40,586 nt of DNA from a plasmid: the NCBI RefSeq assembly GCF_055900595.2, contig NZ_JBVWEU010000005.1; one strand, written 5' to 3'. The notes beneath the pieces were generated by a model that had not been told where the DNA came from, made no database searches, and saw nothing but the letters and a program-made list of their open reading frames with translations. The number at the start of each line of letters is the position of its first letter. The first letter of the stretch is position 1. The translations under genes were made by a program, and so were the position numbers. Shown here piece by piece: positions 3,001-39,108 of the stretch.

Positions 3001-3222
3001 CTTATAGGTCATCCAACGTTGATCGCTATACCCCTGCGCCATAAGGTGAATAGCGTTAATGCCTTTATAACGTTTACCCGTCGTAGGGTTCATAGGCAAT
3101 GCGACACCAGGAGCGCCGGGGTTCCATGGTTTCTGCCATGGAGCTGTCCCCTCTTTAAGCTGGGCTATCAGGTTTTCAGCCACAATCTCATAAAATGGTT
3201 TTTTCGCTTTAGCTTCTGCCAT
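1..3222 (-). CDS. traC: TraC-like DNA primase, N-terminal ~1074 codons (ArdC-like domain, tandem ~40-aa repeats, Toprim EGYATA motif); ORF runs off the left window edge
   Basis: Hand translation of the minus strand from ATG at 3220-3222 (SD GGAG upstream) stays open to position 1: MAEAKAKKPFYEIV..., with HELSH (HEXXH) motif and ending ...LIVAEGYATAGSITEATN. Not in the ORF track because it has no stop inside the window. Confidence 0.8.
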   Translation of the reverse strand, partial: MAEAKAKKPFYEIVAENLIAQLKEGTAPWQKPWNPGAPGVALPMNPTTGKRYKGINAIHLMAQGYSDQRWMTYKQATAANAQVRRGEKGTPIQYWKFTEERIKRNDDGSVVLDKDDKPVKETVQLERPKVFNAVVFNAEQIDGLPPMAVRQDKSWNSIERAESILEASGAKISHDQVDRAFYRMSTDSIHLPQQASFPSADRYYATALHELSHWTGHASRLDRDLSHPFGSEGYAREELRAEIASMIIGDELGIGHDPSQHVAYVKSWIKALQDDPLEIFRAAADAEKIQGFVLGLEQQRIQEQPVTLEREQREKEHNEVMAEVQRLTNPQIFDAETAQLYHFTFMTLEQTAEEAGYVTYYSRGTGELGEETIRVNYEDSNGNTIPVHTDVVGRGKALTYIGDERVPGTGFSSDNEWQSNALKTAFASIDNNLTLVAKKVHSQIENISGDPRELPQDVKFPKNWWPNSSFLASTPNVENSKAAAEADMTTKIETSITSAQQRQYRAEKFILSNLDSGLSKHVQNMNRRQLTLSRNVLYDAQNSNQDSDFWQRNKEFHSSFSQNWNEAQDKIKSAYREIDFALSLLPEPKYNIVENPGQNEHVNIIMQTNSAVKALAAVNEGDNRSIYDSRLINNGKVDLNDLQNNFYQTLEAEKAALKQGIIKPDDEISVLPPGEAQEWYQDRVEGLMEGADSPDELKSALDALGPEPGDNEAVFLGEDGGRILPAFSLNVAQENTPINVPYKERNEAKTLGAKWDRTEQTWFVPKGVSLDKFAKWVGGPTAEKNSSVVSVKEVTPKVGERQNLAVPYKDRAEAKAAGAKWDKEKKTWYAEAGADMQKLAKWKPENVVIEQSPAMTLKEEVETALKDIGCILDADTDKGQKHPIMDGKKHRITVEGDKKGEKSGFYIIYTDGHPAGFMQNNRTKEELRWSSKGNVMSDEEKALLRAQAAQKQAEKAAQQQKDHESSAKRVQKQLAKLNEPQQQTAYLKKKGLQVHKGVFTDKDGQKTFIPAYDVHGKQWTMQYINEDGTKRFAKNARKEGCFHVIGGLDALKESPVLIVAEGYATAGSITEATN

Positions 3223-3227
3223 GGCCC

Positions 3228-3413
3228 TTACTCCGCATCAAAAGCGCTTTCGTATGCGTCACGTACATTCAGCGCATCATCTTCGAATGCCCCCACAAGA
3301 TCAGCCTCATCGGGAGAAAATTCGACTACATATCCCGGTGTCATCAGATCGCGATATTTTTCCTGTATTGCGTCGTTAACATCAGGGCGAATTACTGCAT
3401 TAGTATCAGTCAT
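3228..3413 (-). CDS. small acidic protein (TraD-like position between topoisomerase and primase)
   Basis: 61-aa acidic ORF tightly packed between the two genes; position matches traD in RP4 Tra1. Weak sequence-level support. Confidence 0.4.
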   Translation of the reverse strand: MTDTNAVIRPDVNDAIQEKYRDLMTPGYVVEFSPDEADLVGAFEDDALNVRDAYESAFDAE

Positions 3414-3428
3414 ATAGTGCCTCTACAA

Positions 3429-8212: not shown

Positions 8213-10842
8213 CGACTTCTTCCTTTCGTTGTCCTAACTGAACCGGAAGGGGTAAGTGTGACTGACTCCCCGACTTTAAGATTGCTCAGTCTCCGGGCGG
8301 TGTAATCGCTGACAGGCATCACAACAATTTCATCATCCCGTTTTAGCAGGGCTAACGTTTCCAGCCCGCTTTTACGTTGGCCTGCATACTCAAACAGACC
8401 TTTATCAGTAGAATTATACCCTCTATGTTTCGGTATATCGAACCCTTTAAGGCGTTTTTGCTCACGTTCATTGATATATTTTTCAGCACTACTCAGCGGT
8501 TTCTTAACCTCAGCAGGTGTTGTTATTCCTCCTGCCCCAGCCATATCCCGTCGCAGTTGATCAGCACATTCGGCTGTTTTGTGCTCCAGCTGGTCAGAAA
8601 CATTACCCTGCAATAACACTTCACTTCCTCCGGCGATGCGAACCATACCGAGTTCGGACATTGCTCGCAGACGGTTTTTTGCTGTGGGCGGCGGCTGGCG
8701 TCCAGGTCGCGCAACGTTGGGCTTACTATGTCCTCGTTCGCCATTTGGTTCGGCTGCTCGACTTCTCCCTGTACGGGTGTCATCACTCCTTCCTGGCTGG
8801 CTTCCTGCTGTAGTAACAGCATCGCCTGAGCCAATTCGTCTTCTGCTGCTGCTGGTTCCATATCCGTTTCCGGCATCAGCGGAGGTGCTTCGTCCTGTGA
8901 CTCCTGGCTCATTTGCTCCAGTAGCATTGCCATTACCGCTTCGTTCTCGTCCTGCATCGGTTCGTTCTGTTCCGGCATATCTTTGTCGTCTTTGTTCATT
9001 GTCTTTTCCCTCATTCATTCGGATAAAGTTTTCAATCCGATCTCTGGTTGCGTAAGGACCGACAAACCAGGATTTCTTTTCGGTGTCCCACATGGCTCCG
9101 GCTTGCCGGGCCTTGCCTCTTTGCTCAAAGGGGATGTGGATGTATTCACGCTCGCGGGCCGCTTTCTTAGCCAGAATTTGCCTCAACTTTTCCAGTTCAG
9201 GATCGGCAAATGACACGTCCAGCTCACGCGCAGCGGCTACAGCTACAATGCGTTTTTTAAATTCAAAACTGCCGTTAACGGTGAGTTTGTCTCCGTAACG
9301 GTGTTTAGCCATCAGCAGTGCGGCATGAAGACCGTCATCACCAGCATCACGTGATACATCCAGACGTTTACCACCGTCACGGATAGCACTCTCTCCCACG
9401 CGGTAAATAATCGTCCCTTCCTTCGTTACGCTGTCCGGTTTCAATCCAGGGATACGGCCATCTTTTTTGACTTTATCGCCATGCAGAATGTTGGCCTCTT
9501 TACGAGCCCGTTGTGCATTCCGCTGGCGTAAAATTTTTAGCGCTTCATCATCACCACCTGCGGCTTTGAACTGCAGCCAGTCAGCCCATGTACGGCGTTT
9601 ATGAATGTCATAAGCTGCCTGCCGGTCTTTTTTATAAATGGCATTTGCCCGTTCAAGTTCTTCCCCAAGCGCCTTACTTGCCAGACCATATAAATGGCGT
9701 TTATTCACACCCGGTCCTTTCAGTAACTTGATAGCTGCCCGCTTTAACCGGCCTGTCCTTTTGGCATTTTCAATGAGGCGATCACGTTTAACCTTTGCCA
9801 GACGCAGCGCTTCGTTACGGGCAGCAGTAAGCCGTTGCTGTTCACTCTGGTAGCGCCCGTAAAGAACTGAGGTACTTGCACCCTGAGAACCCAGCGGTTT
9901 GCCCTCATAGCGTTTACCACTGTTAATCGACATAACGGGAATCTCCCCAAGGTGAACCTGTCGGTTTTCACGAATTGGTGGGGGGCGTTCTCCGGGCCGC
10001 TTAACATGTACAGCTGAACCGAATCGTTGTTTAATCGCTTCTGGGGAAAGTCTGGAAGGTTTCGTGTCGGGTATGGAAGACTCAAACGAGCCTAATTTCT
10101 TTTCAAGCGCTGCTCGGGACAGAGAGCGATCTACAGAGCTGGCTTTTACAGCAAGGCCATCGGGACCAGTAATAACGAATCCATTCCCTTTCTGGCGTAA
10201 CTCAAGCCCATTCTGGCGCATTGCCTGATGTAACTCTTGCCAGTTAGCCGCTCTCTTTAATTGATCTGCGCACTCCCTCTTTATCCAGCCAAGCAAACTT
10301 TCTCTGCCGGAATGCCTTTCCATATCTGCCGCATTATTTTCGGATCGCGTCTTACTTGCCCGGTGATTATCGCTTTCAAGGCCAAATTCCTTTTCGAGTG
10401 CCATACATACCGCTGAACGGGTTTTGTAATCGTTGTAGGGGGTATGAATGTTGTAAGTTTGTGGATGGATTTTATTTATAGCGATATGGATATGCACATT
10501 ATCAGTGTCGTAATGAACAGCACTGACACGCTGATGATCGGCATACCCCATAGCCGCGCAGATACGTTCTTCTACAGCATCCAGAACCTCCTGTGACGGT
10601 TTTTCTCCAGGACGAAAGGAAACGATAAGGTGATAGGTCTTGTCGCCCGCTGCGCGCGTATTACGCCGTTGTGTAGGCTCAATCTCATAACGGGCCGCAT
10701 CAAGGATATTTTCATGATGACAGTTCGTAACCTTAATAGCACCCACGCGCTCCTGTTTGTTTTGGGGATCTTGCACATACTTGGCAAGCTCAACAAAACT
10801 ACTCTTTTTGACATTTCGCATTGGGATGTGACGCGAAATCAC
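8209..10842 (-). CDS. traI: TraI relaxase (MOBP family) with long Gly/Ser/Arg-rich C-terminal extension
   Basis: N-terminus MISRHIPMRNVKKSSF...VTNC and HYDTDNVHIHIAINKIH match the IncP TraI signature; start codon is GTG (plus-strand CAC at 10840-10842). Confidence 0.9.
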   Translation of the reverse strand: MISRHIPMRNVKKSSFVELAKYVQDPQNKQERVGAIKVTNCHHENILDAARYEIEPTQRRNTRAAGDKTYHLIVSFRPGEKPSQEVLDAVEERICAAMGYADHQRVSAVHYDTDNVHIHIAINKIHPQTYNIHTPYNDYKTRSAVCMALEKEFGLESDNHRASKTRSENNAADMERHSGRESLLGWIKRECADQLKRAANWQELHQAMRQNGLELRQKGNGFVITGPDGLAVKASSVDRSLSRAALEKKLGSFESSIPDTKPSRLSPEAIKQRFGSAVHVKRPGERPPPIRENRQVHLGEIPVMSINSGKRYEGKPLGSQGASTSVLYGRYQSEQQRLTAARNEALRLAKVKRDRLIENAKRTGRLKRAAIKLLKGPGVNKRHLYGLASKALGEELERANAIYKKDRQAAYDIHKRRTWADWLQFKAAGGDDEALKILRQRNAQRARKEANILHGDKVKKDGRIPGLKPDSVTKEGTIIYRVGESAIRDGGKRLDVSRDAGDDGLHAALLMAKHRYGDKLTVNGSFEFKKRIVAVAAARELDVSFADPELEKLRQILAKKAAREREYIHIPFEQRGKARQAGAMWDTEKKSWFVGPYATRDRIENFIRMNEGKDNEQRRQRYAGTERTDAGRERSGNGNATGANEPGVTGRSTSADAGNGYGTSSSRRRIGSGDAVTTAGSQPGRSDDTRTGRSRAAEPNGERGHSKPNVARPGRQPPPTAKNRLRAMSELGMVRIAGGSEVLLQGNVSDQLEHKTAECADQLRRDMAGAGGITTPAEVKKPLSSAEKYINEREQKRLKGFDIPKHRGYNSTDKGLFEYAGQRKSGLETLALLKRDDEIVVMPVSDYTARRLSNLKVGESVTLTPSGSVRTTKGRSR
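8523..9014 (-). CDS. traH: TraH-like acidic protein encoded in an alternate frame inside traI
   Basis: 163-aa highly acidic ORF (E/D/Q-rich), same strand as traI but a different frame; RP4 has traH nested in traI in the same way. Confidence 0.45.
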   Translation of the reverse strand: MREKTMNKDDKDMPEQNEPMQDENEAVMAMLLEQMSQESQDEAPPLMPETDMEPAAAEDELAQAMLLLQQEASQEGVMTPVQGEVEQPNQMANEDIVSPTLRDLDASRRPQQKTVCEQCPNSVWFASPEEVKCYCRVMFLTSWSTKQPNVLINCDGIWLGQEE

Positions 10843-10856
10843 GATGCCCCCAGGAT

Positions 10857-10869
10857 TTTAGCAGCTAAA
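10857..10869. promoter_or_regulatory. KorB operator (OB) TTTAGCAGCTAAA between traJ and traI
   Basis: 13-bp palindrome in the 28-bp gap between the traJ stop and the traI GTG start. Confidence 0.7.
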
Positions 10870-10870
10870 A

Positions 10871-11230
10871 TCATTTGATCAGTATCCTATCCATTACTGT
10901 TCGTAGCTCGTTTTGGGTTGACTCAATTTTTGCCAAAAGAGTTTTGATTAGTGACACGGAAAAATTACGGGTTCTCTCGTCATTGGAAAGCCACAACTTC
11001 AGTAATCCGCCAAGTCGACCTAAATCACCATTTACCCGACTCAGCTCCTGAACCTGTTCAATATCGACCATGGATTCCACTTCATAACCCATTCCAACCT
11101 TACGCAGAAATGCGGCAGTGCTCAGTCCAGCGGCATCTGCGTTGCGCTTAATGATCGCTTCTTCTTCTGGCAGAACTGGCACACGAATGTGCTTGCCATG
11201 CTTACGTGTAGTTTTCACTTGTTCCGTCAT
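10871..11230 (-). CDS. traJ: TraJ oriT-recognition protein
   Basis: 119 aa, directly flanking oriT upstream of traI; SD GAGGT. Confidence 0.8.
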   Translation of the reverse strand: MTEQVKTTRKHGKHIRVPVLPEEEAIIKRNADAAGLSTAAFLRKVGMGYEVESMVDIEQVQELSRVNGDLGRLGGLLKLWLSNDERTRNFSVSLIKTLLAKIESTQNELRTVMDRILIK

Positions 11231-11464
11231 TTGACCTCACTCGCGGCGGTAGCCGCGTAGCCTCGCAGAGCAGGACTCCCCTTGAGAATCGAAGATGCGA
11301 ATAGGGGAGAGTAAAGTTTGATAACCTGTTTACAGGTTAGCTAACTTTACATGTCCTGCCCGGCTTTCGCCGGTGTTTACGCCAAGGAAAGTCTACACAA
11401 AGAAAAGTGGAATGTCGTGTTTTTTGATGTAAAACTGTGGATATAACGAAAAAACGGCGTTACT
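11231..11464. other. oriT: origin of transfer (oriT) between divergent traJ and traK
   Basis: Imperfect 17-bp inverted repeat 11313-11329 / 11332-11348, followed by TGTCCTGCCCGGC resembling the RP4 nic region ATCCTG/CCCGGC; predicted nic between 11358 and 11359. Confidence 0.75.
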
Positions 11465-11523
11465 ATGCCGCATACACCGGAAAACCAAGGTTTTCCGGGC
11501 GGTTTACAACTGTTATCCTGCTC

Positions 11524-11565
11524 AAATACACACGTAAATACACAGAAATACCTCATAAATACACA
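11524..11565. repeat. four helically phased AAATACACA-like direct repeats (spacing 10-12 bp)
   Basis: aaatacaca at 11524, 11536 and 11557, and aaatacctc at 11546; located between oriT and the likely traK start. Confidence 0.7.
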
Positions 11566-11578
11566 CGCAGGTTATCGG

Positions 11579-12013
11579 ATGGGAAAAGACTATTTAACTG
11601 ACCTACAGGAGTGGGTTAAGCAGAAAAAGGGGCTGAACGGCAAGAGTGCAAACAGCGGGAGGGTAGTCTTCCTGGCAATCCGGGAAGACGTCAGAAATGC
11701 GATTGAAGCCGGTTACTCTCTTACTACGATATGGGAACACATGCACGAAACTGGTCGTGTTAATACCACATACGAAACTTTTCGTCGGCATGTCCGGCGA
11801 TACATAGATGAACGAAAACGTGCAGCTGCTGTTAGCGAAAGTACACCTGCTGGAGCTACGGTAAAGAAAGAAAGCCAACAAACCGGTCCGTCACCGAAGA
11901 AAGAAACAGTGATCCCGGAGAGAACGCCGGTCAAAAGAGAGCCGCCTACGAATACCGGCAGTCAGCTGCCATCTTTCAATTTTAATCCTGGAAAAAAGAA
12001 GGGGACTAACTAA
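11579..12013 (+). CDS. traK: TraK-like basic oriT-binding protein
   Basis: Track ORF 11465..12013; start moved to the internal ATG at 11579 because the upstream part overlaps the phased repeats. Position between oriT and traL as in RP4. Start is uncertain. Confidence 0.6.
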   Translation: MGKDYLTDLQEWVKQKKGLNGKSANSGRVVFLAIREDVRNAIEAGYSLTTIWEHMHETGRVNTTYETFRRHVRRYIDERKRAAAVSESTPAGATVKKESQQTGPSPKKETVIPERTPVKREPPTNTGSQLPSFNFNPGKKKGTN

Positions 12014-12798
12014 TGCCTACTGCAGATAAAAATAAAAAACAGAGTGAAGCTGAATCAGTGCCGGTACGCCATGCTGTTCACAGCGCCCAGCAAGGAAAAG
12101 GTGGTTGTGGTAAATCCGTTAGCACCGCTTTGGTGGCAATGTACAAGATTAGCAAAGGTGAGCTACCGCTGTGCATCGATACCGATCCGCTCAATCCTAC
12201 ATTCTCTAATTATGAAAAACTGAACGTCCGACAGCTGAACATCATGGAAGGTGATGAAATTAATCAGCGCAAACTGGATACCCTCATCCAGTGGATTGAT
12301 GAAGCCGGTGATAGGGACGTTATTATCGATAACGGCGCTCCGTCATTTATTCCGTTATCAAGTTATATGATTAGCCAGCAAATCCCCGCCCTGCTTTATG
12401 AAATGGGTAAACAGCTTGTCATTCATATCTCGATTGTGGGGGGGCAGGCACATGATTACACCGTCGAGGGGTTCAAGGCCATGGTGGAGCAGTATCCGTC
12501 AGAAACCCGTTTTGTTGTCTGGCTTAACCCGTATTGGGGCGCGGTGGAATCCGATCAGGGAGTGCCATTCGAAGAATCAGAAGCGTACCTGATGAATAAA
12601 GACAAGGTTGATGCGCTTATCCGTTTGCCTACACTCAAAAAGGAGTTACACGGCCAGGACTTTGCCGACATGCTGGAAAACTACAAGACCTTCGATGAGG
12701 CCATTGAAGATAAATCATTATCTATTATGGTTCGCCAGCGTCTGAAACAGGTTCGCGCCCTTATTTTCGAACAGCTTGATTTAGCAACGGTGATCTGA
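12013..12798 (+). CDS. traL: TraL P-loop ATPase (MinD/ParA-like)
   Basis: 261 aa, Walker A QQGKGGCGKS; start overlaps the traK stop. Confidence 0.8.
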   Translation: MPTADKNKKQSEAESVPVRHAVHSAQQGKGGCGKSVSTALVAMYKISKGELPLCIDTDPLNPTFSNYEKLNVRQLNIMEGDEINQRKLDTLIQWIDEAGDRDVIIDNGAPSFIPLSSYMISQQIPALLYEMGKQLVIHISIVGGQAHDYTVEGFKAMVEQYPSETRFVVWLNPYWGAVESDQGVPFEESEAYLMNKDKVDALIRLPTLKKELHGQDFADMLENYKTFDEAIEDKSLSIMVRQRLKQVRALIFEQLDLATVI

Positions 12799-13238
12799 TG
12801 GATGATAAGACGGAAGAACTCATTGCGCTCATTGCTAAAAAGCATGGTATAGCCCTGGATGAAACCGATCCGATTATGGTCGTTCCTACCCTGCTTCGTT
12901 ATTTGCTGGATGAAAGCCAGGAGAAACAGGGTGAAATTCTGGATGAGTTTAAATCCGAGCTACAAAGCGCCCTGATGCAATGGGATTACAGCGCGAAGGA
13001 TAAGGCTGACCGTATCCTTAACGCCGCGCTAAAGGCGAATACGGAAGTAATGGAGCGGGTTTTGACATCTGCCGCCACAGAAACCGCTGTCATAATCAGA
13101 AAGGAAGTTCAGGACGAGATCAGAAAATCGCGGGCGCACATAGAAGGGGCAAGAAAACTTGCCATGATGAATATGGCGGCGGCGGTGATCACCTTAATGG
13201 CTGCTGCCGTCGCATTCATTGCAACGTTTTACAAGTGA
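12798..13238 (+). CDS. traM: TraM-like protein
   Basis: 146 aa, overlapping start/stop with traL, hydrophobic C-terminus; position as in RP4. Confidence 0.7.
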   Translation: MDDKTEELIALIAKKHGIALDETDPIMVVPTLLRYLLDESQEKQGEILDEFKSELQSALMQWDYSAKDKADRILNAALKANTEVMERVLTSAATETAVIIRKEVQDEIRKSRAHIEGARKLAMMNMAAAVITLMAAAVAFIATFYK

Positions 13239-13240
13239 CT

Positions 13241-13253
13241 ATTAGCCGCTAAG
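13241..13253. promoter_or_regulatory. degenerate KorB-operator-like palindrome (ATTAGCCGCTAAG) next to a perfect one
   Basis: 11 of 13 matches to TTTAGCSGCTAAA, 1 bp from the site at 13255. Confidence 0.4.
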
Positions 13254-13254
13254 T

Positions 13255-13267
13255 TTTAGCGGCTAAA
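13255..13267. promoter_or_regulatory. KorB operator (OB) TTTAGCGGCTAAA
   Basis: Perfect 13-bp palindrome matching the RK2 OB consensus TTTAGC(C/G)GCTAAA. Confidence 0.8.
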
Positions 13268-13357
13268 ATTTTGTTATGTTGTAGCGTGCCTTATCGCCAA
13301 CCGGCCTGAACCCCGTTTATCGGGGTTTCGCTGTTTTTAGGGGGTAGGAATTGTTGC

Positions 13358-13385
13358 GGAAAAAAATCCCCGCATGACGGGGATT
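13358..13385 (-). terminator. rho-independent terminator downstream of the kfrA-like gene
   Basis: Hairpin ATCCCCG-CATGA-CGGGGAT preceded on the plus strand by an A-run (a T-run on the minus strand). Confidence 0.55.
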
Positions 13386-13395
13386 CTGTAGCTGA

Positions 13396-14076
13396 TCAAG
13401 TTATTGTTCTTGTAAGGCTCAGACCATTCCCTTTACTTAGTGATGGGGCCTGCTCTCTTTGTAGCTTTTCTTTCTGTTCTTTCGCCTGCTTCCGCATGAG
13501 ATTCTCATGCGCTCGCTGTGCAGCCCGCATTTCATCCCATCCTTCGGCAAGCTCTGGTTTATCATGCCGCACTTTGGCCGTCGCAAGTTCGTGTATACGC
13601 GGGCCATGTAACCCCATCCCGTCATGAATCTCTTTGACAGTTTCCAGCCGGTTCTGCAGGCGACTCAGCAATGACTGTTGTTGTTGTACCTGTGACTTCC
13701 ATTTTGCCTTCTGGCCGGGCAGAGCCAAAAACCCAGGCTGACGACTCATCATCTGCTGCAGAACCGCCTCCTGCTTGTCTATCAGCGATTCCAGCCGGTT
13801 TTCAAGGTTTTCTGCCTGCGTTTCTTTATCCGCTACTGCCGCCTCTACCGCATCCTTATATTCCTGCTCAATGTTACCGGCGTCAGTTTGCGAATCCTGC
13901 AAATGGGAAGGGTCATTGATCAACTGCTGCTGTTCGTCATGCAGTTGCTGTACCTGTTCCTGGATATTTACGGCTTCCGACTCTGCGAGAAGATCAGGTG
14001 TAATATCAGGCTGCTGACGAGGGGAGGAGGTATCCCGGACCGCGCCGGGATTTTTAAATGGGGTAGTTGGCTTCAT
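13396..14076 (-). CDS. kfrA: KfrA-like coiled-coil protein
   Basis: 226 aa, Q/E-rich, predicted long alpha-helical; position after korB as in RK2; perfect SD AGGAG. Confidence 0.55.
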   Translation of the reverse strand: MKPTTPFKNPGAVRDTSSPRQQPDITPDLLAESEAVNIQEQVQQLHDEQQQLINDPSHLQDSQTDAGNIEQEYKDAVEAAVADKETQAENLENRLESLIDKQEAVLQQMMSRQPGFLALPGQKAKWKSQVQQQQSLLSRLQNRLETVKEIHDGMGLHGPRIHELATAKVRHDKPELAEGWDEMRAAQRAHENLMRKQAKEQKEKLQREQAPSLSKGNGLSLTRTIT

Positions 14077-14097
14077 CCGGGACTCCTACGCTATTCG

Positions 14098-14451
14098 CTA
14101 TCTGGAGAACTTCCGGCCCTGCTTCTCTGTGGCTGCTGCTACCTGAGCTTTACCGGAAGTCTGGTCATACGAAATACTTTTTTCCGTACCTACCTCTGGC
14201 AGTTTATCGAAATTTTGGCGATCATGCTTGAAAATCTGCTTACCTACCTGCTGATATACTGATTGCTTATCTGCGTGTAAAATCGGCCCATTATAAGAGC
14301 TGGCTTTATCCGGCCCCTTGGACAGATAAAGCGGGTAAATGCCTGGCTTTATGCTGCCCGCTCTATCAACATTGTCATTTTTCCATTTTCCAGCTTCTTC
14401 GCTTTGCAGCACTCGCTGGCCGTTCATGACAAGAACACGCTGTTTGCTCAT
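14098..14451 (-). CDS. hypothetical protein (first gene of the kfrA-like operon)
   Basis: 117 aa, perfect SD AAGGAG; no recognisable motif. Confidence 0.5.
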   Translation of the reverse strand: MSKQRVLVMNGQRVLQSEEAGKWKNDNVDRAGSIKPGIYPLYLSKGPDKASSYNGPILHADKQSVYQQVGKQIFKHDRQNFDKLPEVGTEKSISYDQTSGKAQVAAATEKQGRKFSR

Positions 14452-14948
14452 GTCGGTGTTACTCCTTGTGTTATCATCAACCGTCTGTATTGAGATAGGG
14501 CTAACTGCTATTTTTAAGTTGAATCGGCAACTGATTACCCAACTACTCTTTAACCATCATCCAGGTATTCTCCGGCCCTATGGATAAATGCCGTTAAAAA
14601 TGCGTTTGTGGGCTTCTTTCAGGCGCTGTTTGTCGAAAGGACCAAGATAGGGCTTTCTTCCAGCTACGATAAGTTAAGAGCTATTGTGTCACGCTCAATC
14701 CCTCATCCCAGCCAGGTTGATAAGGATGTCAGTACTCTGATACAGATATTGGTGTTTTTGCCGCTCATTCCTAATGTTGTTTTGCATGTTGAGTATGGTT
14801 CTTAACTCTCCCTGCGTCACCTTACTCATAAGTAACATCACCGGTAATGATGCGTTTTTAGGAAATAGCCGCCAGGAACCATGAATTCTCTGCCCTGACG
14901 GAACTACATAGCCCTCAGGTTAAATTTTGTTTAGCTACATCTATACAT

Positions 14949-14961
14949 TTTAGCGGCTAAA
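14949..14961. promoter_or_regulatory. KorB operator (OB) TTTAGCGGCTAAA
   Basis: Perfect 13-bp palindrome. Confidence 0.8.
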
Positions 14962-14983
14962 ATTATGCAATAAATAATATTAA

Positions 14984-15010
14984 TAAAAAAAATCCCGCGA
15001 CTGCGGGATT
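14984..15010 (-). terminator. rho-independent terminator after korB
   Basis: Hairpin AATCCCGC-GACT-GCGGGATT with a T-run on the minus strand, 22 bp past the korB stop. Confidence 0.6.
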
Positions 15011-15031
15011 CTGAGCGGAAATTGATACCTT

Positions 15032-16045
15032 TTATCCTTCAATAAGGCAAATTATTTTCACGTTTTCGAGATTTAGCTCTTCTTCTACACCAGTTGAATC
15101 AAACTTAATCCAGGCAAGCCCTTCTTCACTTGGGCGCTTGGTCAGGATAAGGCGGCCCTGCTCCCCCAGGTACTCAACGATAACAATAGCCTTTTTGAAT
15201 TTATCAGGATCGGTTTCCTTTTCTGGCGTCTTACGGACCTTATCGGTCACATCGTTATCATCGTGGCCGTCCGTATCATCTTCGGCAGCTTCCGAATCGG
15301 TACGGCCATTGAAGGCGTCAATGGTGTCTGGATCACGCTTGCTGGATTCTTTTTCGTCCAGGAACTCACGGAAAACTTTCACCGCACTACGGGTAATGTC
15401 TTCACCCTCGTTCTCTTCAAGCAGTTTTTGAACTTCTTCCGGGTCTTGCTTGTAAGCCGTTACCAGCTCATTAACTACGGTAACATCACGGATTGAACCT
15501 TTATTAAAAGCATCTGCTATACAATCCGGCAGGTCCAGCAACGCTGCGTGTTGGGTTACGAACGCTGGCGACTTGCCAAGCCGTTTAGCAATCTGAGATT
15601 TTGATACCCCCTCAGCCAGTTTGCGGCCAATGTGTACGGCAATTTCACGCGCCGTCAGGTCATTACGCTGGATGTTCTCAATGACCTGATCATCGTCGCT
15701 ATAGTCATTATCGATAAAAGCGGGAATTTGTTTCTTCCCGGCCACTTTACTGGCTCGCCAGCGACGTTCTCCATGGTTAATAATATAGCGCCCCGCTTGC
15801 TCCGGGTTCTCGCGAACGGAGACAGGCATTTTCACACCACGCGCTTTAATGGTATCAGCCAGCTCCTTAATGGATTCCTCTGAGAACCCTGGGTTGTCCT
15901 GCTTACGCGGTTGTTCAGGATCGGGATCAATCGCATCAACGTCCAGCATCAGTGGTTTACCCTCAGCACCTGCAGACGCATCAAGAAAGTCGGAGAGATC
16001 ACCAACGGTATCAAGGCCAAGGCCGGAAGAATTTTTTTTAGTCAT
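15032..16045 (-). CDS. korB: KorB (ParB-family partitioning protein and global repressor)
   Basis: 337 aa, ParB-like, acidic linker, follows incC with start/stop overlap; its cognate operators are scattered across the window. Confidence 0.85.
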   Translation of the reverse strand: MTKKNSSGLGLDTVGDLSDFLDASAGAEGKPLMLDVDAIDPDPEQPRKQDNPGFSEESIKELADTIKARGVKMPVSVRENPEQAGRYIINHGERRWRASKVAGKKQIPAFIDNDYSDDDQVIENIQRNDLTAREIAVHIGRKLAEGVSKSQIAKRLGKSPAFVTQHAALLDLPDCIADAFNKGSIRDVTVVNELVTAYKQDPEEVQKLLEENEGEDITRSAVKVFREFLDEKESSKRDPDTIDAFNGRTDSEAAEDDTDGHDDNDVTDKVRKTPEKETDPDKFKKAIVIVEYLGEQGRLILTKRPSEEGLAWIKFDSTGVEEELNLENVKIICLIEG

Positions 16046-23068: not shown

Positions 23069-23147
23069 ATTTACATCGAGGCGTAAGCGTATCGTGTACA
23101 ACCTAATTTTTTTTACTAACATCCTCAGACTTCTTGAAGAAAGAGAC

Positions 23148-23498
23148 ATGACAAAGCAGGAACTATCCCAAAAAGCTGGGGTTTCAATCTCTTTTTTGTC
23201 GGACCTAACAAATGGAAAAGCGAACCCATCTTTAAGGGTGATGGAATCCATTGCTAATGCCCTCGATGTAGCCCTTCCCGTTCTCCTTGAAACAACTGAC
23301 CTTGATGAACACAGTCTTATGCTTATGGCTGATGGAAAACCTGTAAAAAGTCTCCCTCCCGGATATGTAAGAGTGTCCGTAATTCTTTCTGAACAGCAAG
23401 CCTTTCGGGTACGAATGTGGAGTGAACATACACGTCAGAAGTTAGAGCAAGAAGCCAAAGCAATGCTGGAGATCATGCAAGAAAAGAAAAACAGTTAA
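23148..23498 (+). CDS. trbA: TrbA-like repressor (XRE HTH plus KorA-type C-terminal domain)
   Basis: Track ORF starts at 23094; the ATG at 23148 (MTKQELSQKAGVSISFLSDL...) starts the HTH. C-terminal motif PPGYVRVSVILSEQQAFRVRMW. Confidence 0.7.
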   Translation: MTKQELSQKAGVSISFLSDLTNGKANPSLRVMESIANALDVALPVLLETTDLDEHSLMLMADGKPVKSLPPGYVRVSVILSEQQAFRVRMWSEHTRQKLEQEAKAMLEIMQEKKNS

Positions 23499-35247: not shown

Positions 35248-35616
35248 TTAGGGCTTTTTTTTCAAAGTCGAAAGTGCGTAAACTATTCTTGATATAGATA
35301 ATATATCTTTTTTATCTAAACTGGATATATTCCAGACGATGAAATTATGAGCCTTAACAACTTCGTCATTTTGCTCATCATTTTTTAGCATTGCATCTTC
35401 CTTTATATTAACAATATCTCCATGTGCCAATTCATTTAAATCAACGCCTGTCACCATCGCAATTTTAATAATATCACTGAACTTAGGTTCAGTTTTACCG
35501 GACGCTATCCTGACCAGCGTACTCACGCTAATGCCAGTCTTCTCGGCCAGTTCTTCATAAGTCGAGTTTTCCAGAATTACATTCTTGATTCTTTCCGCTC
35601 TAATTTCTTTGCTCAT
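35248..35616 (-). CDS. XRE-family HTH protein
   Basis: 122 aa, HTH LAEKTGISVSTLVRIASGK; low-GC gene downstream of the recombinase. Confidence 0.55.
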   Translation of the reverse strand: MSKEIRAERIKNVILENSTYEELAEKTGISVSTLVRIASGKTEPKFSDIIKIAMVTGVDLNELAHGDIVNIKEDAMLKNDEQNDEVVKAHNFIVWNISSLDKKDILSISRIVYALSTLKKKP

Positions 35617-35647
35617 TTAATCTCTACCTTATATTATTTAAATTTAA

Positions 35648-36274
35648 TTACTTATTTTTATGTTTAGACCATACAGCTTTTACAAGACTAACGCTACATT
35701 CACAAAGTTTCGCTGTTTCCGCAATACTCGTCTTCCTTGAACGATACTCAATGATGCGTTTATGGAGCCGTAGATTTGCAGTTCGCCCCTGATACCGGCC
35801 TTGCCGTTTAGCCAGCTCAATACCCTCTTTCTGGCGTTTACGACGGTTTTCATACTCATCCCTTGCCAACTGTAGGGCAACTTTGAGTAACATATCCTGA
35901 ACAGATTCCAGAACGACCTTCGCGACACCGGATTGAGCGTTTGCCAGTTCGGTAAGATCCACAATACCGGGAATGGCGAGCTTCGCTCCCCGCTCTTTTA
36001 TAGAGTTTATTAACGCTAACGCACTATCGAGCGGTAAACGACTGATACGATCTATATGTTCTGCAATAACTACTTCGTCTAGCTGCAGATCATCAATCAT
36101 ACGTTGCAGTTCCGGGCGGTCAGCTCTTGCACCGGACGCCTTTTCTTTATAGATACCGGCAACATAGAATCCATTATTCCTGGCATTTTCAATAATTTCA
36201 TTTTGCCGGGTTAAATCTTGTTCGTCTGTACTAACCCGCAAATATATTCGCGCTATTTTCATATAATAAAACAC
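35648..36274 (-). CDS. serine recombinase (resolvase/invertase family)
   Basis: 208 aa; N-terminal catalytic motif YLRVSTDEQ, C-terminal HTH. Confidence 0.8.
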   Translation of the reverse strand: MFYYMKIARIYLRVSTDEQDLTRQNEIIENARNNGFYVAGIYKEKASGARADRPELQRMIDDLQLDEVVIAEHIDRISRLPLDSALALINSIKERGAKLAIPGIVDLTELANAQSGVAKVVLESVQDMLLKVALQLARDEYENRRKRQKEGIELAKRQGRYQGRTANLRLHKRIIEYRSRKTSIAETAKLCECSVSLVKAVWSKHKNK

Positions 36275-36345
36275 CCCAGCAAATCAATCACGCAATCATC
36301 TATCAATATTCTCTGGTTATGTCTCTTTCTCGCATTATCCATTCG

Positions 36346-36711
36346 TTATTTAATTATGTTTTCTGATGCATGGAGCAACCAGTAGAATATAATCATTCCC
36401 GCACCAGAAAACACTGCGGCGACAGCGAGCCACAAACGCTTATGCACTCCTTCTGATATGCCTGAGAAATATCCTGTATGGAGTAGCAGCAGCGACCATG
36501 ACAACCCTCCTGCCAGACCCAGCAGGGCAGGAGGGATATGCCACAGTTCATATTTCATAATAACAATACCTTCTGCCATCATCATGGACAGAGTGCAAAC
36601 AACAAAACAGTCCCATGAAAAAAAACGCCTGTCAGCAGCAAGAAAAATCACTGTCAGTGACATCACTGTCACTTGGGCCAGCAATAAAGGCCATAAAGAA
36701 ATAAAATTCAT
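36346..36711 (-). CDS. small integral membrane protein
   Basis: 121 aa, 3-4 hydrophobic helices; upstream of the recombinase on the same strand. Confidence 0.45.
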   Translation of the reverse strand: MNFISLWPLLLAQVTVMSLTVIFLAADRRFFSWDCFVVCTLSMMMAEGIVIMKYELWHIPPALLGLAGGLSWSLLLLHTGYFSGISEGVHKRLWLAVAAVFSGAGMIIFYWLLHASENIIK

Positions 36712-36771
36712 TTAATCTTCTCCTCAAGTGCCTTTAAAGTAAATGCGTAGGCTAGTTAATTAAGGTATACC

Positions 36772-36803
36772 CTAAAAAACCACTCGGTGAGTGGCAGGTT
36801 TTT
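36772..36803. terminator. bidirectional hairpin terminator
   Basis: CCACTC-GGT-GAGTGG stem-loop flanked by an A-run on one side and a T-run on the other. Confidence 0.45.
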
Positions 36804-37012
36804 TACTGCACTCACAGTGTAAACTGGCCAGGACAATCAAGGCAACCTTAAAAAGCCATCAATGTGATAAAAATGACATGACATCACTTTTATCACTTTT
36901 TAATGTGGTAGCATCATCTAATGTTGAATCATTAATTACTGTCATTTACTACAAGATTTACGCCATAAGAAAAAAAGCAAAACTCGTAATATTAGCTATC
37001 AGCAGCTACGAT

Positions 37013-37025
37013 TTTAGCCGCTAAA
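37013..37025. promoter_or_regulatory. KorB operator (OB) TTTAGCCGCTAAA
   Basis: Perfect 13-bp palindrome. Confidence 0.8.
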
Positions 37026-37039
37026 AGATTCTCTTACTT

Positions 37040-37663
37040 CTATTTATCTTTAAATTCATCCTGCAGCTTATCAATGCCTTTAGTTAAATCTTGACTTTTA
37101 CCATCTTTATAATCAGGCCATGGAATAAACATCTTTCCTGATTCCTGCATCATTGCAATTGATGTAGGACAGCGCCATTCAGATTCATCACCTTTTTTGT
37201 ATTTAAAAACAACCATTCCACGTTCACACTTAACATCGGGGGAAATGGACTGAATAAACATCGAATTAGCGGAACCATTCTCACCGGCATTGAACATTGC
37301 GCTGTCAAAAAATATAAATGCGAGAATTAATGAGAGAACGGCACAACCAGTATTCCAGAATTTCTTTCCACGTTCGGAATAAAATGAAAACATCATCACC
37401 ATTGCTAGAGATGAAATAAAACCTAACCATTGTGACGCAACTGAAAGTTGTGAAAGCGTTTTAACTGTATAACCACCTTCACCAGAAAGGAAAGACAAAA
37501 TAAACGGTGAAACAATAAAGCAAATTGCTGGAAAACAGGTAAATATCAGTTTGGCATTATTCTTGATTAACTGGCGCTCTCCAGAAGCCGCCGCGATCAT
37601 CGACTGCCACATGATTTTTACCAGCGTCAGCATCAGAACACTGCAGATCAACATATAAAGCAC
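37040..37663 (-). CDS. membrane protein with C-terminal soluble domain, under two putative OC operators
   Basis: 207 aa, about 4 TM helices then a charged C-terminal region; function unknown. Confidence 0.55.
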   Translation of the reverse strand: MLYMLICSVLMLTLVKIMWQSMIAAASGERQLIKNNAKLIFTCFPAICFIVSPFILSFLSGEGGYTVKTLSQLSVASQWLGFISSLAMVMMFSFYSERGKKFWNTGCAVLSLILAFIFFDSAMFNAGENGSANSMFIQSISPDVKCERGMVVFKYKKGDESEWRCPTSIAMMQESGKMFIPWPDYKDGKSQDLTKGIDKLQDEFKDK

Positions 37664-37706
37664 GGCTTACTCCCAATCCTTAGACGCTTTGAAAACCACT
37701 TGCAAA

Positions 37707-37723
37707 TAGGACAAAATGTCCTA
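37707..37723. promoter_or_regulatory. putative KorC-type operator TAGGACA-AAA-TGTCCTA
   Basis: Perfect 17-bp palindrome 44 bp upstream of the 207-aa gene. Confidence 0.55.
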
Positions 37724-37732
37724 TCATAGATG

Positions 37733-37749
37733 CAGGACATAATGTCCTA
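37733..37749. promoter_or_regulatory. putative KorC-type operator CAGGACA-TAA-TGTCCTA
   Basis: Second copy 10 bp from the first; tandem arrangement. Confidence 0.5.
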
Positions 37750-37816
37750 TATGAAGGATGATAGGGAGGCAGCAACCTCCCTATCCGACACCTAAAATCC
37801 GTGCAAGGAATTTGAA

Positions 37817-38023
37817 ATGTCCCATATATCCTATAGCAAAACAGCATCATATGACAGACGGCCACTGGAGTATCTTTCCCTGTCAGATTTCATCCATGCT
37901 CTTCCAACCGTTACCATTGATGAGATTGAAAAACTCGCTGAGACAAACATCCACTTGGTCGAGCAGATACCACGTTACCTGAGCCAAATGGTCAGCCATG
38001 AATGCAGACTTATTGGTTTTTAA
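37817..38023 (+). CDS. small ORF in the divergent intergenic region
   Basis: 68 aa with AAGGA-like SD; may be a leader or regulatory peptide, or spurious. Confidence 0.25.
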   Translation: MSHISYSKTASYDRRPLEYLSLSDFIHALPTVTIDEIEKLAETNIHLVEQIPRYLSQMVSHECRLIGF

Positions 38024-38097
38024 TAGATCTTATTAAAAATAAATAGATACATATAGAATCAATTTGAAACTTTTAATGAAGACAAACCGCCCTCATT

Positions 38098-39084
38098 ATG
38101 AAGCCACACACTCTCCCAAAATGGTGCGTTATGAAAAAATTTCAGGTCAGAAATTTCCCGGACGATGCATATTTCGCCTTGGAACAGTTAGCAAACGAAA
38201 ATCAACGTTCGGTCGAAGGTGAGGCCCGCTATGCTCTGTTGAAATGGATAGCACCTCCTGAGCAGGTTTATTCTGGAGAAGAACTATACCGGCAGGAAGT
38301 GTCTGGCCGCCTCAATACAGTTCTGCGGAAAACCAACCAATTCCGTAACTACAAACCTCTTGTGCCGTCCAATGTGGCCGTAGAGCTGAGGATTGAAGAT
38401 CTTGGCCTTGTCGCCAACTGGTTCAGTGGTGACGTACTCCCTTCCTTCACTGAGCTGCAGCGGTTAAGCAAGTTATTTGGTTGTCGCGCCGACTGGTTAA
38501 TTCACGGTGAGGGGGATGTGTATGAATGGAACTCAGGCGTCAGAATGCACGGCGCAGGCCGGGCTGCTGTTAAGCACCTTCTCAGACCTGATAGTGATGG
38601 TAATAAAGTCACAGACATCAGGCTGCTAAGAGAAGATAGTGATATAGGAGCACTTCTGATACTCCGTGAGTTTGAAAATACACGGTATGTTGATGCGTTC
38701 TGGACAAACCTACACGTAAGTGAAGCCATTGGAGCCGGTGGCGAGTCTGATTTGGCTGATTTTTTTGTCACTCTTCGGGCGCTGTACAAGAGTTTTGTCA
38801 AACTTGATGTAAACGTCAAAGGCTACCTTATGCCGCGATCTGCCTATAAGCAAATCAGAGAAGAGGAACAAGCCTATCCACTGATGCTTCTCAAGGATTA
38901 TCGTGTAAATGAAAGCATGTGGTGGGAGGATATTTGGGATAAAAGTCAAAGAGGTAAATTTAATTACTGGAAAGGTGATGAGGCGCTGATTCGTCGCATT
39001 GAAGATGCAATAAAGCGTAATAAAAGATTGCTTGATGAAATTGAAGCTATTAAAAACTCAGATCCTTTGGACCATGATGATTAA
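38098..39084 (+). CDS. multidomain protein: Arc/MetJ-type ribbon-helix-helix, XRE-like HTH and a ~180-aa C-terminal domain of unknown function
   Basis: Segment MKKFQVRNFPDDAYFALEQLANENQRSVEGEARYALLKW resembles RHH proteins; ...LSKLFGCRADWLIHGEG resembles the end of an XRE HTH. True start may be the ATG at 38131. Confidence 0.55.
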   Translation: MKPHTLPKWCVMKKFQVRNFPDDAYFALEQLANENQRSVEGEARYALLKWIAPPEQVYSGEELYRQEVSGRLNTVLRKTNQFRNYKPLVPSNVAVELRIEDLGLVANWFSGDVLPSFTELQRLSKLFGCRADWLIHGEGDVYEWNSGVRMHGAGRAAVKHLLRPDSDGNKVTDIRLLREDSDIGALLILREFENTRYVDAFWTNLHVSEAIGAGGESDLADFFVTLRALYKSFVKLDVNVKGYLMPRSAYKQIREEEQAYPLMLLKDYRVNESMWWEDIWDKSQRGKFNYWKGDEALIRRIEDAIKRNKRLLDEIEAIKNSDPLDHDD

Positions 39085-39095
39085 CGTTCATTTAT

Positions 39096-39108
39096 TTTAG
39101 CCGCTAAA
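39096..39108. promoter_or_regulatory. KorB operator (OB) TTTAGCCGCTAAA
   Basis: Perfect 13-bp palindrome 12 bp after the stop of the RHH-HTH gene. Confidence 0.8.

Follow-up and report, generated by a model that had tools for sequence, protein, structure and literature searches.

The window analysed here, a stretch of 40,586 nucleotides (40.6 kb), represents nearly an entire enterobacterial plasmid of the IncP/P-1 "clade II" group. On its minus strand three open reading frames follow one another closely, with gaps of 71 bp (membrane gene/recombinase) and 31 bp (recombinase/XRE gene). This arrangement raises two questions: whether the three genes belong together, and on what DNA the recombinase encoded by the middle gene would act. 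A reading made from the sequence only had described an AT-rich three-gene block with an unusual regulator and had suggested that it could be either a multimer-resolution system comparable to that of RK2 or a DNA-inversion switch. Our analysis bears out the three genes themselves, for a membrane protein, a serine recombinase and an XRE-type helix-turn-helix (HTH) protein (Table 1), and the YLRVSTDEQ motif noted earlier is present in the middle protein, together with a match to the family PF00239. The trio, however, is a known backbone function beside two hitchhikers; it is neither a functional unit nor a new system.

The recombinase is, by the measure of its amino acid sequence, a backbone orthologue of ParA of RP4/RK2, handed down as part of the IncP/P-1 clade II backbone. 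It matches the resolvase family PF00239 with an E value of 1.2e-22 (81 bits, cut-off 23.3) and aligns with RP4 ParA without gaps over 199 aa at 65% identity and 80% similarity (E 1e-94). The backbone proteins diverge from their RP4 counterparts to the same degree, with identities of 62% for TrbB, 63% for TrbE and 67% for TrbA, and TrbG also falls within the range of 62–67%. The amino termini of the two resolvases correspond (MKIARIYLRVS versus MKVARIYLRAS in RP4). From this alignment and from the RefSeq annotation of a 99.9% identical plasmid of 40.8 kb, which was used for comparison, translation most likely begins with the ATG at 36262 and not with the GTG at 36274 that a mechanical call had given. 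An alignment of six ParA-family proteins revealed that R9, S11, D71, R72 and R75 are invariant. The stretch Y7-L-R-V-S11 aligns with Y5-A-R-V-S9 of Sin, and IDRISR with IDRLGR; in the gamma-delta resolvase, the equivalents of the catalytic Arg/Asp cluster are R8, D67, R68 and R71. Ser11 within YLRVS is the predicted catalytic nucleophile. In the carboxy-terminal region, where no Pfam HTH domain was detected at E 0.01, residues 160–199 align without gaps to RP4 ParA and share the conserved pattern SIA.TAKL..CS...VK.VW. The gene is transcribed towards the end of the trb operon, convergently with it, and lies between trb (Tra2) and the Tra1 side, the same place as in RP4 and pLBC54. As far as the recombinase is concerned, the earlier comparison with the RK2 ParA system is therefore supported by the 65% identity, the backbone-like divergence, the position and the res-like site upstream of the gene.

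Table 1. Coordinates of the genes and of the proposed control and recombination elements in the window
Feature	Position	Strand	Description
XRE/Cro-C1-type HTH gene (ORF)	35248–35616	minus	122 aa; start 31 bp after recombinase stop
Serine recombinase ORF, mechanical call	35648–36274	minus	GTG start at 36274
parA-like serine resolvase gene	35648–36262	minus	204 aa; ATG at 36262
Segment shared with IncF plasmid	36307–36715	minus	Contains membrane gene 36346–36711
Membrane-protein gene (ORF)	36346–36711	minus	121 aa
Conserved non-coding region	36751–36936	minus	80–91% identity in all ~110 related plasmids; holds candidate res
Candidate res	36754–36857	minus	104-bp span at head of recombinase operon
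Candidate res site I (crossover)	36754–36781	minus	28 bp, GGTTTTTTAGGGTA/TACCTTAATTAACT, RP4-like layout
Terminator-like hairpin	36779–36795	minus	GCCACTC-ACC-GAGTGGT then TTTTTT; from terminator scan of both strands
Candidate accessory site II	36797–36829	minus	33 bp, half-sites GGCCAGTTT and GGTTTTTTA; placed by architecture
Weak candidate operon promoter	36816–36845	minus	TTGCCT 36840–36845, 18-nt spacer, TACACT 36816–36821
Candidate accessory site III	36831–36857	minus	27 bp, putative half-sites GGCTTTTTA and GGACAATCA
KorB operator (OB)	37013–37025		TTTAGCCGCTAAA; one of 12 matches in window, 0.04 expected

The two neighbouring genes have other origins. The 121-aa protein contains four hydrophobic segments of 19 residues that resemble transmembrane (TM) segments, and it was therefore regarded as a membrane protein. 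It belongs to no family in Pfam, NCBIfam or PHROG, and a homologue search retrieved only close enterobacterial relatives, all of which are annotated as hypothetical. At the DNA level, the segment that contains the gene recurs in an IncF plasmid with 96% identity over 409 bp; in that plasmid the gene is located between traF and traQ. The corresponding position of a distant MPF-F Salmonella plasmid holds a homologue with 42% identity. The membrane gene is a recent copy of a gene whose usual place is the traF–traQ slot of IncF transfer operons, and it was placed between res and parA. In IncF tra operons, close relatives of the 121-aa protein are encoded exactly at the place of trbA, and the protein is similar to the TrbA of the F plasmid in size (121 versus 115 aa) and in its four TM-like segments, which for F TrbA are a pattern seen by eye, but there is no detectable sequence similarity between the two (BLASTP E 1.7). 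The 71-bp gap at 36275–36345 turned out to be a junction at which the IncF-derived segment, ending at 36307, meets the conserved recombinase leader. A search of this gap for recombinase-recognised repeats, as proposed before, gave nothing notable beyond short repeats of the TGATTG type.

The XRE protein matches HTH_3 (E 9e-12) and, over its full length (residues 3–118), phrog_3557 (E 2e-45). It is 63% identical to a regulator of an inovirus-like replicon of E. coli (9.5 kb), in which the genes for the regulator and for the replication protein pII/X are divergent; the HTH core, residues 17–49, is identical in the two proteins, and the DNA of the genes is 92.6% identical over 35467–35601. The identity to a gene of Vibrio phages of 6.4–9.7 kb amounts to 45%, and the match to the RstR family is weak (30.5 bits, cut-off 80). 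Judging from these relationships, the protein is a member of the filamentous-phage repressor family. It resembles CTXphi RstR and the inovirus repressors as an HTH protein of about 120 aa with relatives encoded divergently from a pII/X gene, yet it differs from them in being an orphan on a conjugative plasmid. No phage genes were found in the window, and no phage replication gene is arranged divergently to the XRE gene. We also considered that the XRE protein might be the IncP regulator TrbA, and rejected this assignment because the true TrbA orthologue (67% identity to RP4 TrbA) is encoded at 23094–23498; the two proteins have only a generic HTH in common. Together, the membrane-protein gene and the XRE gene look like unrelated passengers, one from an F-type plasmid and the other from a filamentous phage.

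The sequence-only reading had found no res site by eye, but had named 36712–37010 as an interval to be searched. Within this interval our tools identified a candidate, at 36754–36857, which is most likely the res of the plasmid. It is part of a conserved non-coding region that in relatives includes the 5′ region of a divergent gene for a 295-aa protein. A distant blastn search retrieved 110 records, all of which start at query position 28, corresponding to 36933 of the window. This breakpoint (36933–36936) was tested as a crossover point and discarded, since it results from a replacement specific to one lineage, that of the window and its near-identical twin, in which the divergent 295-aa gene kept by all other relatives was lost. 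Candidate site I is centred between 36768 and 36767, and its palindromic core GGGTATACC at 36764–36772 is the same as the core in RP4. The 28-bp counterpart of RP4, GGCCCAAATGGGTA/TACCCAATTTGACC, adjoins the gene at the head of the par operon, and in three other ParA-type plasmids 28-bp elements beside the first par gene have the same layout in a looser form, with cores that are related but not identical. Site I is unique in the 40.6-kb window, with a score of 30.7 against a position weight matrix (PWM), a next-best score of 7.8 and a shuffle maximum of 13.5, although this uniqueness is partly circular because site I itself contributes to the matrix. A single element of this kind in 40.6 kb fits the resolution of dimers, and not inversion or excision within a monomer. 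In RP4, the parC-proximal 28-bp element would be site I, as suggested by sequence logic and by the reported insertion of Tn502, which entered the 'resII' of RP4 with a TTAAA duplication (PMC7765201).

The putative accessory sites II and III were placed by analogy of spacing. Candidate site II is centred 45.5 bp from the centre of site I and overlaps the candidate −10 element. The best dyads of 34–36 bp in RP4, pLBC54 and an IncW-like locus are likewise centred 45.5–46.0 bp from the site I centre, and in the clade II consensus a dyad of 32 bp is found at 46.0 bp. The symmetry of the accessory sites is weak (4–6/9) in the variant of the window, and a dyad scan gave other dyads with equal scores. 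Candidate site III, which overlaps the candidate −35 element, is centred 76.5 bp from the site I centre, and RP4 has a 27-bp dyad centred at 77.5 bp. The half-sites of candidate site III are the third and sixth best half-site PWM matches in 36700–36960. For comparison, the multimer resolution system (MRS) of RP4 spans 106 bp (PMC5698047). Another dyad, GTGATAAAA-N15-TTTTATCAC at 36866–36898, was rejected as a res subsite, as its left arm consists of a 9-bp tandem duplication that is peculiar to the window and missing from its relatives.

A consensus promoter scan of 36712–37040 found no promoter. A weak candidate, in agreement with the consensus at 8 of 12 positions, falls within candidate sites III and II and is kept in relatives as TTGCCT..TAAACT. 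Given this location, autorepression of the operon by the enzyme is probable, as for the resolvases of RP4 and Tn3. The terminator-like hairpin, which overlaps the left half of site I, has a predicted RNA folding energy of −14.3 kcal/mol (z −1.9) and could act in both directions, since a run of A precedes it. Its pairing is kept in the other sequence type of the relatives through changes in both arms (AACC..GGTT versus AGCC..GGCT). For the leader of an operon, a hairpin at this place, after the candidate promoter and ahead of the genes, is unusual. Further upstream is an operator for KorB that fits the consensus established for IncP-1. Its distance is 156 bp from the predicted res (end of site III at 36857) and about 170 bp from the −35 element of the candidate promoter. 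It is a possible route by which the backbone could control the recombinase operon.

The variability of related plasmids around site I was examined in an alignment of nine plasmids. From 3–4 bp past the centre, the sequence on the right of site I differs from plasmid to plasmid, and three different right arms follow one and the same left arm. When a left marker (GGTT versus GGGC) is compared with a right marker (F-gene versus deletion type), all four combinations are present, carried by the window and pYDC107_41, by pCFSA664-2, by pTHO-015-2 and by pTA13-3. From this four-gamete pattern it follows that an exchange took place inside the 13 bp at 36765–36777, which contain the centre of site I. 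In addition, pA2483imp-1 harbours an In4-type class 1 integron with the Tn402 ends IRi and IRt, flanked by the 5-bp duplication TGGGC. The duplicated bases equal 36778–36782 of the window, 10–14 bp from the site I centre. Elements of the Tn402/Tn5053 type are known as 'res site hunters' of res sites occupied by resolvase, including the parA-res of IncP plasmids (PMC7765201, PMC12217951). In pA2483imp-1 it is IRt, and not IRo/IRi, that is nearest to the resolvase gene; the preferred orientation reported for res hunters is the opposite one (PMC7765201).

On this basis we consider it probable that the recombinase is the plasmid's own multimer resolvase, with its res most likely at 36754–36857, and that its neighbours are passengers. 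Dimers that arise by replication or homologous recombination would contain two directly repeated copies of res. Resolvase bound at all three predicted sites would synapse the two copies, and Ser11 would cleave at the centre of site I (GGGT-AT-ACC, 36768/36767). Strand exchange would then yield two monomers, so that each daughter cell could inherit one.

It is conceivable that the trio is one functional module, in which the recombinase has the XRE protein as its dedicated regulator and the membrane protein as a working partner. All three genes are on the same strand, the short gaps make co-transcription probable, and an XRE gene is also located 3′ of the recombinase gene in about a quarter of the related plasmids. 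However, the recombinase gene and res are present in all of the approximately 110 relatives, whereas the membrane gene and the XRE gene are each variably present. In pTA13-3 the recombinase is accompanied neither by an XRE gene nor by an intact membrane gene, and pS171-1.3, pMCR_1511 and pJJ1886_4 have other ORFs where the window has the membrane gene. In pJJ1886_4, moreover, the recombinase gene and the XRE gene are set apart by five ORFs and a gap of 417 bp; the XRE gene abuts parA in the window because such sister-plasmid ORFs are absent, and the adjacency is a junction with a 10-bp overlap. With a membrane gene that is nearly identical to a gene of an IncF tra operon and an XRE protein from an inovirus repressor family, the trio has separate origins and is not inherited jointly, so that the earlier description as a three-gene block with an unusual regulator is not supported. 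Operator-like matches do not link the XRE protein to the block either: 11-mers taken from NZ_CP128883.1 (7478–7648), where the inovirus-like replicon has its control region, are not enriched near it (18 hits versus 4–21 in other 3.2-kb chunks). A common module is thus improbable. We regard it as even more doubtful, indeed very unlikely, that the block is a foreign island or a transposon remnant such as a stranded tnpR-res of the Tn3 family. Such an origin has in its favour that two of the three genes are demonstrably foreign, that the region is a hot spot for accessory genes in IncP plasmids, and that the GC content of the block is slightly low (40.7% versus 45.4% for the window, i.e. 1.65 SD under the mean of windows of the same size, at the 6.6th percentile). 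The lower GC content that had been read from the sequence is thus real but weak, and a distinct island is marginal and not centred on the block. The recombinase gene (44.2%) and the membrane gene (43.7%) fall inside the range of the backbone (trfA, 44.5%; SLT, 43.8%; topoisomerase, 43.2%), and most of the deficit is due to the low values of the XRE gene (35.2%) and of the spacers. The lowest values in the window are found to the right of the block (37.7–38.1% in 1464-bp windows starting at about 36600–36710 and reaching to about 38150). Accordingly, the block is not a discrete compositional island. Against this origin also speak the orthologous position of the recombinase, its divergence from RP4 to the degree of the transfer and replication proteins and its presence, with res, throughout the family, and the annotation of the 99.9% identical plasmid lists neither a transposase nor terminal repeats.

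The recombinase could also be a DNA invertase and switch expression, for example of membrane proteins, by inverting a segment close by. Small serine recombinases include invertases, the protein has weak matches to Gin and Mpi in PDB and NCBIfam searches, and the database names of its relatives include 'DNA invertase Pin-like'. Yet the match to Gin (E 9e-07) is far inferior to that to the RP4 resolvase, the one crossover-type site in the window has no inverted copy flanking any segment, and no long-range inverted repeats suited to inversion were found in the window. Since the window and four variant plasmids are all colinear, with no inverted block, the DNA-inversion switch considered in the sequence-only reading finds no support, and we judge an invertase to be extremely unlikely. 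A different extension would see the stretch from site I to parA as an exchangeable cargo slot, with exchange as its selected function, or the XRE protein as a factor of immunity against inoviruses. As site I is proximal to the genes, resolvase acting on cointegrates would swap the DNA downstream of the crossover, and such swaps would lead to the at least four unrelated gene sets that follow the same left half-site. If immunity were true, the orphan XRE protein would shield plasmid-bearing cells from an exploiting inovirus. We consider either of these selected functions rather unlikely.

The preferred reading, a resolvase acting at its own res, can be placed among known systems, and the closest is the ParA-MRS of RP4/RK2 (IncP-1 alpha). 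The two have in common an orthologous, colinear resolvase with the same catalytic residues, the location at the end of trb, and a res, predicted here, of about 105 bp at the operon head with the core GGGTATACC and candidate dyads at about 46 and 77 bp, which is targeted by Tn402-family elements (PMC7765201). In contrast to RP4, the window is devoid of parC, the parB nuclease gene and the divergent parDE, and unrelated cargo is present between res and parA; sister plasmids do have an SNase/ParB homologue, but downstream of parA. In RP4, parC, parB and parDE are dispensable for resolution, and their lack is therefore no argument against the mechanism. The half-sites differ as well (GGYTTTTTA-like versus GGCGCATT in RP4), which matches changes in the predicted recognition helix, CSVSLVK here versus CSPSQVK in RP4. 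An IncW-like locus that is widespread on resistance plasmids, and which by the gene order of R388 is probably of the ResP type, encodes a member of the same ParA clade (57–59% identity) and has a res-like region with a 34–36-bp dyad 46 bp from a TATGCCC core, but it belongs to another backbone and its half-site motif is CGGCCAA. With Tn3 and gamma-delta the locus shares a small serine resolvase, a res (here a candidate) with three subsites and about 105–120 bp, and putative autoregulation via a promoter in res. In these transposons site I measures 28 bp, site II about 34 bp and site III about 25–27 bp (PMC12217951). Sequence similarity to them is only distant (E about 1e-4), site I is gene-proximal here and distal there, the distance between sites I and II is about 46 bp versus 53 bp, and the function here is plasmid maintenance without a transposon.

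The locus is thus an ordinary member of a known system, newly delineated. IncP/P-1 clade II plasmids bear mcr-1, blaKPC and blaIMP in Enterobacteriaceae (PMC9499019). The location of the proposed res accounts for the accumulation of accessory DNA, a class 1 integron among it, at exactly this place and for the abrupt change of gene content at one point of 13 bp. The site would offer a defined target for work on plasmid stability and curing, and a second, diverged ParA/res pair that may serve as a recombination tool.

The window covers nearly all of a conjugative plasmid of ~40.8 kb with an IncP/P-1-like backbone (trfA, ssb, trbA, trbB-L, traF/G/I/J/K/M, korA/incC/korB, kfr and kle); it shares 99.9% identity with E. 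coli pSTEC2018_607-e (NZ_CP075702.1). Its close relatives include pCFSA664-2, pMCR_1511, pJJ1886_4 and pEN3600; these and their kin are 'clade II' of the IncP/P-1 plasmids, described as confined to Enterobacteriaceae (PMC9499019). The three minus-strand ORFs of the sequence-only reading are present as described: a 121-aa protein with four hydrophobic segments, a serine recombinase (PF00239, motif YLRVSTDEQ), most likely starting at the ATG at 36262 and not at the GTG at 36274, and an HTH_3 protein of XRE type. The lower GC content claimed for them is weak (40.7% for the block vs 45.4% for the window, the 6.6th percentile of same-size windows). It holds for the XRE gene (35.2%), which accounts for most of the deficit, but not for the recombinase (44.2%) and membrane (43.7%) genes, both of which are backbone-like. 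The window's GC minimum falls right of the block, at about 36600-38150.

The recombinase aligns with RP4 ParA without gaps over 199 residues (65% identity, 80% similarity, E 1e-94). Its identity to the aligned ParA-family resolvases (RP4 ParA, pLBC54 ParA and an IncW-like plasmid locus) is 57-65%, and to the 'parA' product of pYKBG020 64.8% (tblastn). Residues R9, S11, D71, R72 and R75 are invariant among the aligned proteins and align with the catalytic residues of Sin. Since it has diverged from RP4 as far as TrbB (62%), TrbE (63%), TrbG (62%) and TrbA (67%) have, and since the gene occupies the position orthologous to RP4 parA, at the trb operon end and convergent with it, the recombinase is a vertically inherited backbone gene and ParA orthologue, not an import. 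ParA and the multimer resolution site (MRS) of RK2/RP4 form a small serine resolvase system in experimental use, with a 106-bp site (PMC5698047).

No res site had been recognized by eye, yet a candidate can be identified at 36754-36857 (104 bp). It lies in a non-coding stretch (36751-36936) that all ~110 family plasmids share at 80-91% identity and that always heads the gene array containing the recombinase, regardless of the intervening genes. We compared this stretch with the parC-parD intergenic region of RP4 and with the sequences preceding parA in pLBC54, pYKBG020 and the IncW-like locus. Common to all is a 28-bp imperfect palindrome adjoining the first gene. In an unbiased dyad scan, the best 34-36-bp dyad lay 45.5-46.0 bp from the centre of this element in RP4, pLBC54 and the IncW-like locus; RP4 has a further 27-bp dyad at 77.5 bp, and the clade II consensus a 32-bp dyad at 46.0 bp. 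Classic site I/II/III sizes match the dyad sizes of 28/34/27 bp (PMC12217951), and an IncP insertion of Tn502 reported to lie in 'resII', with duplication of TTAAA (PMC7765201), fits the 34-bp dyad of RP4, GGCGCATTTAAATTGCG.... We regard the site I assignment as well supported and those of sites II and III as provisional; the accessory candidates are weakly symmetric in the window variant and alternative dyads exist. The RP4 half-site is GGCGCATT, whereas that of the window is GGYTTTTTA-like; likewise, the predicted recognition helix reads CSPSQVK in RP4 ParA and CSVSLVK in the window recombinase.

Features of the resolvase region and its surroundings (window coordinates)
Feature	Position	Details
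XRE gene	35248-35616	minus strand
Recombinase gene	35648-36262	minus strand
Membrane-protein gene	36346-36711	minus strand
28-bp element, RP4		GGCCCAAATGGGTA / TACCCAATTTGACC; comparison of ParA-type loci
Candidate site I	36781..36754	minus strand; GGTTTTTTAGGGTA / TACCTTAATTAACT; comparison of ParA-type loci
Candidate site II	36797-36829	33 bp; centre 45.5 bp from site I centre; half-site-like matches
Candidate site III	36831-36857	27 bp; centre 76.5 bp from site I centre; half-site-like matches
Terminator-like hairpin	36779-36795	between candidate promoter and genes, overlapping left half of site I
Best promoter candidate	36845..36816	TTGCCT-18-TACACT; 8/12 consensus positions; inside sites III and II
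KorB operators	1909-39108	12 sites; nearest to block 37013-37025 and 39096-39108

Four independent signs point to a working crossover site at the predicted site I. No other such element occurs in the window: the PWM score is 30.7, the runner-up scores 7.8 and shuffled sequences reach at most 13.5, in a partly circular test. To the right of its centre the sequence varies among plasmids from 3-4 bp onwards, the same left arm being followed by three different right arms. Two left-side types (GGTTTTTT and GGGCTTTT, with linked hairpin changes) and two right-side types (the IncF gene and a deletion variant) are found in each of the four possible combinations, represented by the window and pYDC107_41, pCFSA664-2, pTHO-015-2 and pTA13-3; therefore, at least one exchange took place inside the 13 bp 36765-36777, which include the site I centre. 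A resolvase acting on two related plasmids joined in a cointegrate would be expected to produce such a pattern. Finally, a class 1 integron of In4 type, bounded by Tn402 IRi and IRt, sits in pA2483imp-1 between two copies of TGGGC, a 5-bp duplication equivalent to window 36778-36782 within the left half of site I; its IRt, however, is nearest the resolvase gene, the reverse of the preferred orientation. Elements of the Tn402/Tn5053 type, known as res-site hunters, target res sites occupied by resolvase, e.g. the parA-res of IncP (PMC7765201, PMC12217951). The alternative of a DNA-inversion switch is disfavoured, as the window holds no second or inverted crossover site and no inversion was seen among the relatives compared. 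The multimer-resolution reading, by contrast, agrees with both the orthologous recombinase and the candidate res upstream of it. As to a transposon origin of the block, no transposase was found in the window or in the annotation of its 99.9%-identical twin.

TTGCCT-18-TACACT is an uncertain candidate for the operon promoter; the promoter scan made no call there. Pairing in the hairpin is kept in the other sequence type via changes on both arms. Distally, the conserved region contains a window-specific 9-bp tandem duplication (AAAGTGATA / AAAGTGATG, 36882-36899), which created an eye-catching GTGATAAAA..TTTTATCAC dyad absent from relatives. The motif TGACAGTGAT / AGTGATGTCA occurs twice within the first 65 bp of the IncF-derived membrane ORF (36647-36674), with similar copies upstream, distally in the conserved region (36879-36888 and 36935-36947); this recurrence may be due to chance, because the intra-ORF copies are present in IncF plasmids too. 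The KorB operator palindrome TTTAGCSGCTAAA has 12 matches in the window (8 exact, 4 with one mismatch) vs 0.04 expected by chance; RK2 likewise has 12 KorB operator sites. The operator at 37013-37025 may tie the recombinase operon to backbone control.

The two neighbours have other origins. The 36307-36715 segment, made up of the membrane gene plus 4 bp on its upstream and 39 bp on its downstream side, shares 96% DNA identity with IncF plasmids. These carry the gene at the position of F trbA, flanked by traF and traQ. In a distant MPF-F plasmid this slot is taken by a 42%-identical homologue. The likely home of the gene is therefore the F transfer operon. Pairwise comparison revealed no similarity of its product to F TrbA, and it matched no described family, its database relatives being only close and unnamed. 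The XRE protein is a full-length match to phrog_3557, a family of phage regulators (E 2e-45). It is 63% identical, with an identical HTH core (residues 17-49), to the regulator of a 9.5-kb inovirus-like E. coli replicon, encoded divergently from the pII/X replication gene, and 45% identical to a gene product of 6.4-9.7-kb Vibrio phages. It is not the IncP regulator TrbA, whose orthologue sits at 23094-23498.

Relatives do not keep the three genes as one block. The recombinase stands alone in pTA13-3; pTHO-015-2 has XRE gene, 465-bp insert, recombinase and a half-deleted membrane gene; other unknown ORFs fill the res-to-recombinase gap in pS171-1.3 and pMCR_1511, and four to five do so in pJJ1886_4 and pA2483imp-1. 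In pJJ1886_4, five ORFs including a ParB-like SNase separate recombinase and XRE gene. Given these arrangements and the presence of the XRE gene in only 33 plasmid records (~26 family members, vs ~110 with recombinase and res), the trio represents a variable region in a minimal, mosaic form. The AT-rich pTHO-015-2 insert (2752-3216 of that locus), between recombinase and XRE gene, encodes an unannotated hydrophobic protein of ~130 aa. The par array is much longer in the sister plasmids pA2483imp-1 (locus positions 10059-15141) and pJJ1886_4 (366-3773): two small ORFs and then an SNase-family (RP4 ParB-like) nuclease follow parA, unlike the parC-parB-parA order of RP4, and a DinQ-like type I toxin gene (dqlB) adjoins the XRE gene.

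On the other side of res, the window and its twin (36937-37560) lack a divergent 295-aa gene and a 65-aa ORF that all other family plasmids carry (e.g. loci L002, 6029-7244, and L008, 6864-8170), which brings a 207-aa membrane gene (37040-37663; no family match) next to res. The 295-aa protein shows a weak N-terminal RHH/NikA-like match; the start codon of its gene is found ~10 bp beyond the alignable part of the conserved block, with RBS and leader at the block edge. Upstream of the 207-aa gene, the divergent control region holds two 17-bp palindromes 26 bp apart (37703-37753), AGGACAAAATGTCCTAT and AGGACATAATGTCCTAT, which look like variants of the RK2 KorC operator TAGGGCATAATGCCCTA, altered symmetrically from G to A and from C to T. 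A family-wide conserved gene next to an Hha/YmoA gene encodes a 328-aa protein (38098-39084) with an N-terminal FitA-like ribbon-helix-helix (E 1.9e-6) and a second, weak HTH_3 match. Two KorB operator matches bracket 37040-39084.

The system is thus of a known kind, ParA/res multimer resolution, with two hitchhiker genes alongside. What is new is the delineation of ParA/res in a plasmid clade where it was previously undelineated; the cargo slot next to res and the orphan repressor of inovirus type are modest points of note.
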